From positions 16,967 to 80,966 of IMG/VR virus record IMGVR_UViG_3300042350_003822: 64,000 bases of DNA; one strand, written 5' to 3'. The stretch's first letter is position 1. The number at the start of each line of letters is the position of its first letter. Below the pieces are notes generated by a model. The model made no database searches, was not told the DNA's origin, and worked only from the letters and a program-made list of their open reading frames with translations. Shown here one piece after another: positions 2,047-57,743 of this stretch. A program made the position numbers and the translations under genes. The stretch is from a virus.

Positions 2047-5000
2047 TTATTTATTCTCCAAAGAGTTGATTTTTTGTTCTAGTCTATTTATGTGCGCTTG
2101 CTGTTCCTTGATTGCTTCAATCAGAAGGCCAACCATATTGCCGTAGCGAACCGCTTTGAAGTTTTCGGTGCCTTCTACATCTGTAGCAGTATATATCACC
2201 TCAGGTAGAACCTTTTCTACTTCTTGGGCAATCACCCCAGTAGAACGGCTGCCATCCTTCTTATAGTTAAAGTTTACACCGTTGAGTGTAAGTAGCTTCT
2301 CAAGAGCGTTTGGAATGTTCTCTATATTATATTTTAGATTTATATCGGATGGAGAACCATATGCTGTAATGTTACCCGAAGCAATAATGTCGCCGCCGTT
2401 TGTCAATGCACTAACAGCACTACCGCTTCTATTTCCAGCGTGAACACGGACACCATTTGAGAATCGCATTGCGCAATAACCATCATTCAAGTCAACAATG
2501 TCACCATCGTCAGCAAGAATAATTCCATTGCCACCAACGTTACCACCTGAAACATGTATGCCGCCAGCAACATACATTGCGTTACTAGCCGTACTTGCAG
2601 GATCAAGATAATAAGCAGTGTTATTACTATCGTAAAAAATAGGTGCTCGTGTGTCCCCTGCTGCACTTAAAATACCACCAGTTGTGAGTGATGCGGTGGT
2701 AGCATATCCAGTTTGATTACGGAAAAGTATAGTGCCGGTATGATCAATATAATTGGTACCAGATGCGCTTAGGTTCAATTCAGCAAAAAGAGTAAGAGTA
2801 CTTAAAACGCTTTCTGAGTCAGCATCGACGTAATATCCGGTATTATTATTGTCTTTAAAAACTGTTGCTCTTAATTCCGCGCCGTATGCATTGTCATAAA
2901 GTGCAATTCTGCTCCATGCAGTCGAGCCAGATCCACTTGTAGATCTGTAGAATACTCCTTGGTCATAAAAAGTAGACGCAAATTGCATTGAATAGTAGTT
3001 GGCATCATTGGAGTGAGTTGTGGCAAGTAAATGGTGCCAGCTACCAGAATTCGTAGGCCATCCTTCAGCAAGAGTGCCACTATCGTGTTCGTAGAAGCCC
3101 GAGTCTACTCGGGTTGTAATGTCGGCTCTACTGGTAGCATCCCCAGCGAATGTTGGAGTGATAGCTGATGTAGCAGTGGTGGCAGATGTCGCGGAACCAC
3201 TAATGTTCATTGTCTGACCGCTGATAAACGTAGCTATGGATGCGGCTGTACCCGAGCGGTAATAATTGTCGCCAGCCTTAACCATTACAGCGCTTACGCC
3301 AGAGCTCACACTATTATCGGTAGAATTAAAATAGTTATTGAAGATGTATCCGTTACCATCGGCCGCCACAACTCGGTTAGCTACAGCCGCACTTGCAGAT
3401 GGTGTTAGCCCCCCAACCGTTGCAGCATTGCCAGTAACACTAATACCCCAAGTACCGGATGCACCAGTACCTGTTAGAGTTGGTGCATAGCTATTGTAGT
3501 TAGCATTGGTTAATACAGTTTTAAATGCGGTCCATGTTGAGCTATCAGTCTTGTTTCTAAACTGCATTGACCCACCATAGGTAAATGTCATTTGAAGCGG
3601 ACCTAGAGAACCTCCTGCATTAAATACGAGTATTCCCTGACTATCTGAAGGATTAATCTGAGTATAAAAACCATTCAAAGTAGCAGTATCTATACTAGCC
3701 TGAAGTACACTACCCCTATTAACCATGTAACTACTAAAGTCAGATAGACTACCAGCGCTACCGGTAACATTAATTGCCCAATTGCCAGATGCGTCTCCAC
3801 CTGTGCGTGTTGGTACGTTTAACGATGCTCTGAAACCAGTAGCATCGTTTTTACGTATGTAATTGTCAGAAGAAGAATAGAAAACTGAATCCGTTGTAGC
3901 TCCTGACGCGCCGTGAGACATATTGAAATATTCGGCAAACCCATATCGTCTATAATCATCACCATTGCTATCTCTCTGCACAATATGGTTAGCTGTAGCA
4001 GCTGTGCCAATATTACCCGCAGATAGCGAACCTGGGAAAGTGGTATTACCACTACCATCTAGTAAAGTAGCCGTGCGAATAAGTGTAGAGAATACACCAG
4101 TGTACTGTCTTACGTAGATAGGCTCAGTACCATCATCAGCAGTCGCAATTTCAAGATATCCAGCATTCGTACCAGTAGCACCAATAAGAATACGAGCTTG
4201 GTCGTTGTCGCCCATATTTCCGCGTACAAGCTCAGCAGATGTAGTTCCTGTTACTGTTTTAACAACAGCTGCTGCTGATAATGTAGCAACGTTGGCAGAC
4301 AGCGTGCTGTTCAATTGATATGATGCAGCTGCAGTACCACCTAGGAAAGAAGCATTGTTAGCACTGATGGTAGCAATATAAGCGCTGTTGACAGTAATCG
4401 TGCCGCTAGTGTCAGTTAAGCCTGTGCTGAAAGTATAGGTTGTGTCATTATCAGCAGCCCAATATGCAGCTGTACCATTGGAGTGTAGAACTTGCCCAGC
4501 AGTTCCAAATCCACCATTTGCAGAAAGTCCTACCGACCCGAAAACCACGTTGCCAGAAAATGTGGTGATGCCAGCTACCGCAAGGGTTGAAGAGACGTTA
4601 GCAAACCCAGTAATCGTGGTATTGCCGGCAGCAAGAGTAGTAATACCCGATGCTGCACCAGCAGCTACAAGCGATGAGATAGCAAGTGGCTGGCTATTGG
4701 TAGACCAGCGATCGTTTGTTTCATCCCAGATGAATTGAACGTTAGCAGACGTCCCACGCATGATCTCGATGCCAGCATTCTCGGATGGAGCTGCTTCACC
4801 CAGATCTGCATTCAGAGTAAGTATATTATCACCAACGTCAATTGTTGTGGTGTTAACATACGTTCTAGTTCCTGAAACAGTCAGGTTGCCAGATAGCGTC
4901 AGGTCTGTAATTGAAAGCGCAGAGTTAACATGAATGCCAGCTGTGTTGACAGTCAGTGTCGAACCAGTTGTGACTCCGAGAGTTCCTGTCGATGTAATAG

Positions 5001-55318: not shown

Positions 55319-55888
55319 TTATCCTCTATAGAAAATATGCGCACCGATCTTTGTGGTGCGATCAAAAACTCTACCCCAGGAAGGGCTGACATAATCTGCA
55401 TGGTAGAACTTAGCACCATGTGTCACGTCCCCATAGTTTCCTAGGTATACGTTTTCAGCAATCTGCTTGGCCTTACGAAAGGCAGCTTGATCCCGAATAT
55501 GTTTTCTTCCCTCACACTTCCATGAAAACTGGCATACGCCTCGAGCCTTTTGATTAATGACTCCACAGGGTGTGCTAGGGAAACGCTTATCGTTCGCACG
55601 GTTCAATACAACATTGTTTACTGCGATCCGACCCTTGATAGGTTCGTGAGCGGCTTCAAAATACGTATTGGTTGCCATGCATTGTATTTGTTGTTTGTCA
55701 TGCTTGTTTAGATAAACAGGCTGTTTAACAATGACTTCTTTCTCTACTACCTGTATCTGCGGAATCTTTACTATCTTAACTTTAGTGGGTGTTATTAACG
55801 CAACCCCTATAACAGCCACGACTCCGATAAGGAAGCCTTCCGTCCAACGTAGATAAGGAAAGTCTTTTCTGTTTACAAACAGTTTCAT
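55319..55888 (-). CDS. SleB/Hydrolase_2 cell-wall hydrolase with N-terminal membrane segment
   Basis: CMATNTYFEA..EP..G.IAV..VVLNR...FP...CGVI.Q...CQFSW, GAKFYHADYVSPSW, IGAHIFY. Confidence 0.92.
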   Translation of the reverse strand: MKLFVNRKDFPYLRWTEGFLIGVVAVIGVALITPTKVKIVKIPQIQVVEKEVIVKQPVYLNKHDKQQIQCMATNTYFEAAHEPIKGRIAVNNVVLNRANDKRFPSTPCGVINQKARGVCQFSWKCEGRKHIRDQAAFRKAKQIAENVYLGNYGDVTHGAKFYHADYVSPSWGRVFDRTTKIGAHIFYRG

Positions 55889-55897
55889 TTGTACCTC

Positions 55898-56163
55898 TTA
55901 GGTCAAATGACTTTGGCAGATAGTGACAGCTTTAGAGGAGTGTCTCAACTCCAACTGTAATTATCGCTATGAGAAGATACAAAATGCAATACCAAAGGTA
56001 TCTTCCATCCATCCCTCTCTTACTAGGAATGCAAAATCATTATTGTTTCGTCGGTGGAATTATCATCGATCTGAGATCTGTAATAATTCCGCTTTCTTAG
56101 CCAACTTTGACTTGAAGCTATTGTAAGAGTCAATGGAGGGTGTCAGCCTCCTTGGTAACCTAA
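55898..56163 (-). ncRNA. Highly structured ~270-nt RNA / 5' leader of the SleB gene (family not recognised)
   Basis: Starts right after TATAAATA; closing stem UUAGGUUA/UGACCUAA; at least seven nested helices, with G-U wobbles valid on the minus strand. Confidence 0.7.
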
Positions 56164-56171
56164 TATTTATA
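56164..56171 (-). promoter_or_regulatory. T4-type late promoter TATAAATA
   Basis: Exact consensus. Confidence 0.85.
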
Positions 56172-56217: not shown

Positions 56218-56634
56218 TCACAGACCCGCTTTCTTCACGAGGTCTTTGTACCCACGCCACGACGGATGAATATTATCTGGCTCAACATAAGACGTAGAGA
56301 TGATATTATCTCCATACTTAGCAGCAATGTCTTTTACGTTTTGGTTGATCTGTGGCTTACAGAAGCCCTTATTACATGGTGGCATGACCCACACAACCTT
56401 GACAGAGCGGATTCGATATCGAATCTTCGATAGCTCTCTGAAAGTATTTACGCCGTTATGATCGTTGGTGCCAAGACTGATCACAATCGTGTTGGCTTTG
56501 AGTGGAGTGCTACCCCACTTACGATTCCATTGCCGTGTATTCCAACCACCTTTGGAATATGAAACACATTCGGTTGGAGCAAACATCTTAGTGCCCACAG
56601 CAATGGAATCGCCAATAATCAAACACTCGAGCAT
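56218..56634 (-). CDS. SGNH/GDSL hydrolase (esterase)
   Basis: IIGDSIA (block I), ISLGTND (block III), DNIHP (block V). Confidence 0.85.
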   Translation of the reverse strand: MLECLIIGDSIAVGTKMFAPTECVSYSKGGWNTRQWNRKWGSTPLKANTIVISLGTNDHNGVNTFRELSKIRYRIRSVKVVWVMPPCNKGFCKPQINQNVKDIAAKYGDNIISTSYVEPDNIHPSWRGYKDLVKKAGL

Positions 56635-56643
56635 GCTAGTCTA

Positions 56644-56844
56644 TTAGTTACTATCGACAAAAGACTTTAATTTTGCCGCCTCGGCAATAATTTCTTCGGT
56701 GGTTGGAAACGTAGGAGCTTCCGGAACTGGCAATTTGCTATTAATAGCAACATCTCGTGCTTCACGGGCATTATAAAACCGGGCGTTTACTTGATCTTGC
56801 GCAAGTTTAAGCATCTCCATACGGAGAACATAAGGTGTAGTCAT
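56644..56844 (-). CDS. Small conserved phage protein
   Basis: PY.LR.EMLKLA...FPTTEEII.EA.KL.SFV; AAGGA SD preceded by ACACAC-rich leader. Confidence 0.75.
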   Translation of the reverse strand: MTTPYVLRMEMLKLAQDQVNARFYNAREARDVAINSKLPVPEAPTFPTTEEIIAEAAKLKSFVDSN

Positions 56845-56890
56845 TTTAATATCCTTTTGTGTGTATGTGTTGTGTGTTGGTAAACTTTTT

Positions 56891-56932
56891 TATAAATAGA
56901 TGGTAGTCGCGGACTGGCATCCCACTACCTCT
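56891..56932 (+). promoter_or_regulatory. Late promoter TATAAATA followed by leader hairpin for the HNH gene
   Basis: TATAAATA 56891-98; GGTAGT-CGC-GGA-CTGGCA-TCC-C-ACTACC; AGGAG SD follows. Confidence 0.7.
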
Positions 56933-56954
56933 AACACTTTCTAGGAGTATCAGC

Positions 56955-57446
56955 ATGACTATTTATTATCACGTACATCACATTATCCCAAGGCATATGG
57001 GTGGTACTGACGACCCTGATAACCTAATAAAACTCACAGTAGAAGAGCATGCCGAAGCCCATAGACTTCTATATGAGAAATACGGCAATGAATTCGACAA
57101 AATTGCGTGGCTTGGTCTTACTAAAAGTATAACGAAGCAAGAAGCGATGAGACTTGCTCAGAGCGAGGGTGGTAAAAAGAAAAAACCACCTAGGTCAAAA
57201 GAGCATAAAGAAAAATTGTCAAAAGCTGGTATGGGGCGTATTGTCTCCAACGAAACCCGAAAGAAGTTGGTAAAAGCATCTACTGGGGTAAAGCGTTCAG
57301 AAGAAACCCGTAAGAAAATGTCTGACTCCCATAAAGGACAGCGAAGACCCCACACAGAAGATGCTAAAAGAAAAATTTCAGAAGCACGTCGTAGAAGAGT
57401 ACTGGTTGATTCTGTTTCAAAGCTCAACCAGCAAAGCTCATGTTAG
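56955..57446 (+). CDS. Free-standing HNH homing endonuclease with NUMOD3 repeats
   Basis: HHIIPRHMGGTDDPDNL..LT.EEH..AH; repeats SKEHKEKLS, SNETRKKL, SEETRKKMSDSHKG, HTEDAKRKISEA. Confidence 0.9.
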   Translation: MTIYYHVHHIIPRHMGGTDDPDNLIKLTVEEHAEAHRLLYEKYGNEFDKIAWLGLTKSITKQEAMRLAQSEGGKKKKPPRSKEHKEKLSKAGMGRIVSNETRKKLVKASTGVKRSEETRKKMSDSHKGQRRPHTEDAKRKISEARRRRVLVDSVSKLNQQSSC

Positions 57447-57732
57447 ATTAGGCAGCTAGTGCGTAATTAACAATATCGTTATCATTAGATGCGACATTTA
57501 GTTTTTATGATCGTACTCGATCAACGAATCAGTCTCGAACCGCCCTATTCAACGAAAATCGATATCCTGGTCACCCCCATCATAGATACACCATTTAGTC
57601 TTACTGCGTAGTATGCCGAAGCGCCCATAAGACCAGTCTTTCGGTCCACACTGTGGTGTATCTATGGTGGAGGTGGAGGGAGTCGAACCCTCGTCTTTCC
57701 GCCTTTATTGTTGATTGTCAACAACTGATATA
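57400..57732 (-). ncRNA. ssrA: Two-piece (circularly permuted) tmRNA gene
   Basis: Acceptor piece ~57732-57665 ending GAGGG-TTCGACT-CCCTC-CACCTCC-ACCA; intervening segment 57664-57579; coding piece begins GGGGGTG at 57578 (G3-U70 pair); tag ORF 57492-57448 = ASNDNDIVNYALAA*; 3' end approximate. Confidence 0.93.
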
Positions 57733-57733
57733 C

Positions 57734-57741
57734 TATTTATA
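57734..57741 (-). promoter_or_regulatory. T4-type late promoter TATAAATA for tmRNA
   Basis: Exact consensus immediately 5' of the acceptor piece. Confidence 0.85.
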
Positions 57742-57743
57742 GT

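Follow-up and report, generated by a model that had tools for sequence, protein, structure and literature searches.

The window analysed here is a stretch of 64,000 nucleotides taken from an 80,966-bp viral contig of IMG/VR, which belongs to an uncultured T4-like phage; the DNA runs containing it are labelled as lake-water or freshwater metagenome. On its minus strand, a gene for a GDSL-type hydrolase is followed by a gap of 329 nt, by a gene for a SleB-type cell-wall hydrolase and then by gp33, here the late-transcription coactivator, and gp32, whose nearest match is a cyanomyophage gp32 (68% identity). The SleB product matches Pfam Hydrolase_2 (4.9e-24) and, among the PHROGs, endolysin families, and its N-terminus carries a membrane segment. 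Within the gap lies a T4-type late promoter, described as perfect by the first-pass annotation of this DNA and, in fact, an exact copy of TATAAATA, an octamer found 7 times in the window against 2.8 expected. In T4 late promoters this octamer is located at about -13 to -6 and, therefore, the RNA probably starts near 56158, ~6 nt downstream of the promoter. The features of the locus are as follows.

55319..55888, minus strand: SleB-type cell-wall hydrolase (endolysin), 189 aa (Pfam Hydrolase_2, PHROG)
55889-56158, minus strand: non-coding leader element, ~255 nt
56164..56171, minus strand: T4-type late promoter TATAAATA, exact match
56218-56634, minus strand: GDSL-type hydrolase, between tmRNA gene and leader
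56644-56844, minus strand: 66-aa ORF, between tmRNA gene and leader
56955-57446, plus strand: HNH homing endonuclease, on the opposite strand between tmRNA gene and leader
57357-57757, minus strand: permuted (two-piece) alpha-type tmRNA gene

The tmRNA gene, recognised by Rfam RF04321 at 82 bits and by ARAGORN, which reads the tag VASNDNDIVNYALAA, lies 1.2 kb upstream of the leader and SleB. In most relatives it ends 5-50 nt ahead of the late promoter of the leader, and phages with a different leader (L255, L262 and L267) likewise have tmRNA, late promoter, leader and SleB in this order. Its alpha type suggests an alphaproteobacterial host. The three ORFs in 56218-57446 part the tmRNA gene from the leader in the window phage only, and this block looks like an insertion into an otherwise conserved junction. 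In divergent relatives, the leader-SleB unit is flanked by tRNA genes (L189:1-188, 3730-3918; L192:6147-6307), and in L189 the tRNA ends ~60 nt ahead of the promoter-like site of the leader.

Homologues of the element, which occupies the minus strand between TATAAATA and SleB, were searched for in IMG/VR by using the SleB protein and two DNA patterns from the core of the element. Well over 100 loci were obtained, and the intergenic DNA was 70-97% identical in all of the first 80; a search by SleB protein alignment added divergent members, in which SleB is ~50-57% identical to that of the window. In total, 72 distinct element sequences were collected, all from viral metagenome contigs, with either TATAAATA or NNTAAATA as the promoter in the same place. 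In each of the 177 loci where the sequence reached far enough, SleB follows the element directly and starts 124-140 nt past a motif in the loop of the helix P4a described below.

The element is not conserved as a protein, an alternative that the first-pass annotation had left to be checked: the presence, length and frame of ORFs differ between lineages, none of them being conserved, and the indels are not multiples of three. By contrast, its nucleotides are far more constrained than the third codon positions of SleB, with a mean pairwise identity of 0.84 vs 0.54 and 44% of invariant columns, long single-stranded junctions included, vs 2%. In the window, the 287-nt stretch folds with an MFE of -78.5 kcal/mol (z = -3.5), and 1 of 200 shuffles was as good. 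Moreover, many of the changes are from U-A to U-G or from G-C to G-U, which keep pairing only on the SleB-sense strand, and this indicates that the RNA strand is the one sense to SleB.

The fold consists of the three hairpins P1-P3, followed by the long-range helix P4, which encloses P4a, P5 and P6; an additional pseudoknot connects the single strand between P1 and P2 with the loop of P4a. The parts, from the 5' end of the RNA and all on the minus strand, are listed below.

56135..56151, minus strand: P1, hairpin GGAGG-loop-CCUCC, 100% paired in the 72 sequences
56123..56129, minus strand: J1/2, pseudoknot 5' strand CUCUUAC, pairing with GUAAGAG in the P4a loop
56094..56117, minus strand: P2, hairpin UUC-A-AGUC / GGCU-A(A)-GAA, invariant stem with a variable loop of 4-7 nt
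56056..56090, minus strand: P3, variable hairpin, GGAAUUAUUA/UGAUAAUUCC in the window
56042..56055, minus strand: J3/4, conserved single strand ACCGACGAAACAAU, hardly varying between aligned sequences
56032..56041, minus strand: P4 5' strand AAUGAUUUUG, partner 55906-55915
56010..56031, minus strand: P4a, hairpin CAUUCCU / AGGGAUG, 100% paired, 3 pairs compensatory
56017-56024, minus strand: P4a loop AGUAAGAG, containing the pseudoknot 3' strand
55972..56006, minus strand: P5, hairpin GGAAGAUAC ... GUAUCUUCU with a dispensable loop, 99.6% paired
55919..55965, minus strand: P6, three-segment arm GAUA/UAUC, ACAG/CUGU and GGAG/CUCC, 13 of 13 pairs changing on both sides
55906..55915, minus strand: P4 3' strand CAAAGUCAUU, partner 56032-56041
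55889..55907, minus strand: linker and ribosome-binding site (RBS), with UUUGAC at 55902-55907 (3' strand of the pairing P7), the Shine-Dalgarno sequence (SD) GAGG at 55894-55897 and the spacer

In the homologues, this structure covaries. A covariance model (R1) was built and used to align the 72 distinct sequences: 97.5% of the cells are paired, vs 44-56% when the partners are slid, both sides have changed in 33 of the 64 pairs, and none of 500 shuffles reaches any of five measures. As sequences aligned with R1 are fitted to it, the independent check is an alignment made with MAFFT (40 sequences, structure drawn by hand), in which 97.4% of the cells are paired, vs 44-54% with partners slid by 1-3 columns, and compensatory changes occur in 13 pairs. 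The outline given by the first-pass annotation, a leader that is structured, conserved and non-coding and that is read from a late promoter ahead of a SleB-type hydrolase, is supported.

A further long-range contact is the pseudoknot, in which 7 bp covary in three versions and all the 72 sequences pair: CUCUUAC/GUAAGAG in 64 of them (9 of these having CUCUUGC, with a G-U pair), CCAUUAC/GUAAUGG in 7 and CCUUUAC/GUAAAGG in 1. As the pseudoknot is absent from R1, the alignment was not fitted to it. The assignment of CUCUUAC as an anti-SD was discarded, because the SD is unchanged in the CCAUUAC lineages and it is the P4a loop with which the strand covaries. P6 is capped in the window by the GNRA loop GAGA (55943-55946) and, depending on the lineage, by GAGA, GGGA, GUGA, GAAA or GCGA, so that the cap is under GNRA constraint; four divergent members (L187, L189, L192 and L196) have a shortened P6 without GNRA.

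The other helices differ in how much they vary. P1 also occurs as GGGGG/CCCCC, GGGGU/ACUCC and GGGGA/UCUCC, with a loop of variable length and sequence, and in P3 both partners have changed in all the 6 pairs, a single position showing as many as 6 types of pair; P3 is long in the window, where an insertion of 18 nt is accepted, and most relatives have a 6-bp stem with a pentaloop. The changes in P4 are mostly wobble exchanges, many of them from U-A to U-G, with compensatory changes in L192, L196 and L250. The P5 loop is shortened in L043 and L092, its stem covaries in L248, and L274 has a different hairpin instead. The stem of P2 is invariant and, therefore, holds no informative covariation of its own. 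A further pairing that we considered, GGCUA with UAGC in J5/6, was abandoned, as variants of J5/6 show no compensation.

Every complementary segment listed by the first-pass annotation could be located where it had been placed, and six of its helices are held across the 72 homologues, namely GGAGG/CCUCC (P1), the GGAAUUAUUA/UGAUAAUUCC hairpin (P3, 6/6 pairs covarying), the long-range AAUGAUUUUG/CAAAGUCAUU (P4), AUUCCU/AGGGAU (P4a), GAAGAUAC/GUAUCUUC (P5) and the GAUA..ACAG..GGAG arm (P6), whereas three are limited to the lineage of the window. The latter are UUGACU/AGUCAA, elsewhere replaced by an invariant AGUC/GGCU hairpin, GUUGG/CCGAC, not conserved outside the lineage of the window, and a closing stem, UUAGGUUA/UGACCUAA, confined to its closest relatives. 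Three features had escaped it: the pseudoknot, the GNRA loop at the tip of P6 and the linker's pairing with P2.

Reduced forms of the element exist in nature. In L250 (864-1050), the promoter TATAAATA is followed by UCCCC, which pairs with the P4a loop UGGGGAG, and then by P4, P4a, P5 and P6, with no P1-P3; its core has many compensatory changes and scores 70 bits with the core model R2. Similarly, P1-P3 are deleted in L064 (2725-3016), which retains the CUCUUUAC strand and the core, and in L249 (930-1176), where no TATAAATA is present, an additional hairpin has been inserted into the loop of P4a. The forms in L250 and L064 identify the pseudoknot and the P4 junction as the constant unit, the rest being peripheral.

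A different leader of ~130 nt (e.g., L255:950-1085) precedes SleB genes that encode a signal peptide (L254-L273; 41-47% identity). It is laid out as TATAAATA, a hairpin with a U run, which is terminator-like, a hairpin CAGUG-UGGGGAGU-CACUG and then ACCCUCUC; its UGGGGAG loop is identical to the P4a loop of L250, and it gave no match to Rfam, to R1 or to the core-only R2.

The 3' strand of P4 ends 8-11 nt ahead of the SD and, in most lineages, the 5' half and the loop of P2 are complementary to the linker that follows. This pairing, P7, differs in sequence and register: in the window, GUCAAA (56111-56106) can pair with UUUGAC, as in the clade of the window and in the divergent L242 and L248; further versions are AGUCUUAG/UUGAGACU, AGUCUUAGG/UUUAAGAUU and UCUUAGAU/AUCUAAGA, and in UCUUUAG/CUAAAGA an extra loop base is matched by an extra base in the linker. 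In addition, an invariant CUUC is able to extend P7 onto the SD GAGG. A single consensus register was tried and dropped for these differences between lineages, and each sequence was thus scored against shuffles of its linker: the natural linker ranked among the top 5% for 14 of 28 distinct combinations, corresponding to 46 of 66 sequences, and was no better than the shuffles in about a quarter of the distinct combinations. L250 has no P2 at all.

P7 and the P2 hairpin are mutually exclusive, which makes an alternation between them a plausible candidate for an expression platform; since P2 never varies, the covariation that speaks for it is that of P7 only. The accessibility of the SD predicted by MFE and partition-function folding of 19 representatives was inconsistent and was not used further: the pseudoknot cannot be modelled by these methods, and its strand was mis-paired as a nested helix.

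For this region the first-pass annotation had proposed a switch in which the closing stem leaves the SD free and an alternative hairpin, UCAUUUG..CAAAUGA, buries both SD and AUG. This hairpin does exist in the window, with 7 bp, and it reaches at least 6 bp in 27 of 71 sequences, but it is reduced to 4 bp in the 29 of 71 that form the largest clade and to 0-1 bp in five more; to judge from these sequences, P7 is kept more widely. The other arm of the proposal is lost with the closing stem, which is lineage-specific and lies mostly upstream of the probable RNA start: its 5' strand covers positions -5 to +3 relative to the late promoter, so that most of it would be missing from the late transcript. 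The same position recalls the control of T4 gene e. An early read-through RNA would carry UUAGGUUA and have its RBS region blocked, and the late RNA would be made without that strand, by a mechanism documented for T4 e, soc, 49 and I-TevI (PMC3014915) and with an 8-bp stem available in the window. We consider this explanation very improbable for the element, as the stem is found only in the closest relatives of the window, with equivalent sequences elsewhere not complementary, it stops short of the SD, and it gives no account of why 255 nt beyond the promoter have kept their fold.

It could also be argued that the leader is constitutive, its 5' hairpin and compact folding protecting the late mRNA from RNases and/or SleB translation being throttled to a fixed low level, with no sensing. 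In favour of this are the position of P1, within a few nt of the probable 5' end, the weak and variable pairings near the RBS and the limited distribution, one phage clade and one gene. On the other hand, the fold, at 255 nt and with its invariant junction, covarying pseudoknot and conserved GNRA cap, is far more elaborate than a stabiliser or a simple RBS hairpin would have to be, and the 44% of invariant columns include long single-stranded junctions, which argues for the specific recognition of something. On balance, a purely constitutive leader seems unlikely to us.

The distribution of the element was examined more widely. Neither core pattern matched in prokaryotes (one genome each from 185,579 species), and blastn of the region against 50,697 phage records gave no match; RcXuper and RpAliso, which have the closest SleB by tblastn among cultured phages, have no long leader. 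A covariance-model search of the window for a second copy returned promoter-like noise only. The first-pass annotation had not recognised the family and, in agreement, Rfam 15 has nothing on the element at E <= 10 in the window and at E <= 1 in 11 relatives, its matches nearby being tmRNA and tRNA genes only; the element is in no catalogued RNA family. No Rfam match to the known self-cleaving ribozymes (hammerhead, twister, twister-sister, pistol, hatchet, HDV-like, glmS) was obtained either, and a literature search on SleB, riboswitches and phage found nothing relevant. Thus far, the element is confined to one phage clade and one gene.

The element is represented in one RNA library, the estuary metatranscriptome run X20, by short contigs at 55893-56100 (208 nt, wholly within the element, with 5 mismatches), 55998-56048 and 55832-55887, the rest of the stretch, including most of SleB and the upstream gene, being without cover. 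These contigs tell of presence only, and not of ends, strand or level; DNA carry-over is possible and the gaps are uninformative. A contig of 208 nt on the element, next to an almost uncovered SleB and upstream gene, is a hint of a stand-alone stable RNA, or of a self-processing ribozyme, that would share the SleB promoter and for which SleB translation would not be the main purpose. Stable RNAs with no known function lie next to the tRNA genes of phage T4, the element follows permuted tmRNA or tRNA genes in most relatives, and its size and tertiary motifs are like those of large non-coding RNAs. Nevertheless, contig cover is no measure of abundance, and there is no terminator-like site between the element and SleB, nor any other 3' boundary before the SD. 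Moreover, where the tmRNA gene and SleB are parted, as by the three ORFs of the window, the element stays with SleB, and it does so also where a tRNA gene or a protein gene is found upstream; a fixed distance separates it from the SD, and pairing draws the linker into the fold. Considering also that no known ribozyme family is matched, we regard an independent RNA as quite unlikely.

We favour, as fairly probable, that the element is a cis-acting 5' leader which controls SleB translation in a riboswitch-like manner. RNAs made of an aptamer and an expression platform have a conserved core beside variable RBS-proximal pairings and peripheral domains. Here, the conserved core, the variability of both the RBS pairings and the periphery, and the strict 5' linkage to a single gene lead to such a reading; as in riboswitches, a covarying structured domain with invariant junction nucleotides was found in a 5' UTR, with no terminator or gene before SleB. 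The element would be the untranslated leader of the late SleB mRNA and would act in cis on translation initiation. Its core is formed by P4, closing the junction of P4a, P5 and P6, with the P4a loop tied to the 5' single strand by the 7-bp pseudoknot, and P1, P2 and P3 constitute a peripheral 5' domain. We infer that the core could serve as the sensing or organising domain, whose folding state would set the openness of the RBS: the RBS-proximal linker would be held by the 5' strand and loop of P2, through P7 and its CUUC-GAGG extension, so that P2 would not form as a local hairpin. The start codon, in its turn, can pair with the P4 3' strand in some lineages as an alternative. Metabolites, ions, proteins of the phage or the host and folding kinetics alone are candidate triggers. 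Since SleB has an N-terminal membrane segment and could lyse the cell early, a tight control of its synthesis would make sense.

A more specific version of this cis control, which we offer as tentative and rather doubtful, is that the pseudoknot and the P4/P4a/P5/P6 junction form the aptamer of a new riboswitch class sensing a small molecule of the host. The ligand may then be a cell-wall precursor, a nucleotide messenger or an ion, and its sensing would gate the translation of a membrane-tethered endolysin, tuning the timing of lysis. Confinement to one clade and one gene is unusual among metabolite riboswitches, and it fits a phage-specific protein or a kinetic mechanism equally well.

The timing of lysis, and hence its control, is central to the fitness of a phage. 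T4-type phages are known to exert this control through holin and antiholin proteins and, for lysozyme, through a simple hairpin at the RBS; a leader that is large, pseudoknotted and supported by covariation, and that serves the endolysin gene alone, would represent a new layer of lysis control. If it binds a ligand, it would also be a new riboswitch class, carried by a lytic phage whose hosts are abundant bacteria of fresh water. As an RNA it is well defined, with 72 natural variants, a clear pseudoknot and natural minimal versions, and the leader fills a gap left unannotated in many metagenomic phage genomes.

Among the systems already described, the closest in setting are the T4 genes e, soc, 49 and I-TevI, whose translation is controlled by simple RBS hairpins (McPheeters et al. 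1986, as cited in PMC3014915); in the case of e, according to the same source, one short hairpin is involved, with its 5' strand missing from late transcripts. Gene e and the element share the T4-type phage, a gene for a lysis enzyme, TATAAATA just upstream and RNA structure near the SD or AUG as the presumed site of control. Unlike the e hairpin, the element is ~255 nt long, multi-helix and pseudoknotted, lies wholly downstream of the late promoter and is itself conserved, and a stem of the e type, UUAGGUUA/UGACCUAA, which occurs in the window, ends before the SD and is absent from the other lineages.

Riboswitches for c-di-GMP (c-di-GMP-I, GEMM) have been reported in the PhiCD119-type lysis module of C. 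difficile prophages (PMC3649979). In common with them, the element has a structured 5' leader, a conserved core, variable RBS-proximal pairings and a lysis-associated phage gene; it gives, however, no match in sequence or structure to GEMM or to any other Rfam riboswitch, it is about twice the size of most aptamers and it is confined to one lytic phage clade. GOLLD, ROOL and similar RNAs are free-standing, at least 500 nt long, often near tRNAs and of unknown function. The element resembles GOLLD and ROOL in coming mainly from uncultured phage sequence and in its elaborate fold, pseudoknot and GNRA-type tertiary motifs, but it is shorter, strictly 5' of one gene, without a terminator and without a match in Rfam. 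To the stable RNAs C and D of T4 (species 1 and 2), the likeness is only one of position, beside tmRNA or tRNA genes in relatives. In purpose, the element resembles both the T4 e hairpins and the c-di-GMP-I riboswitches, and it is a member of neither.
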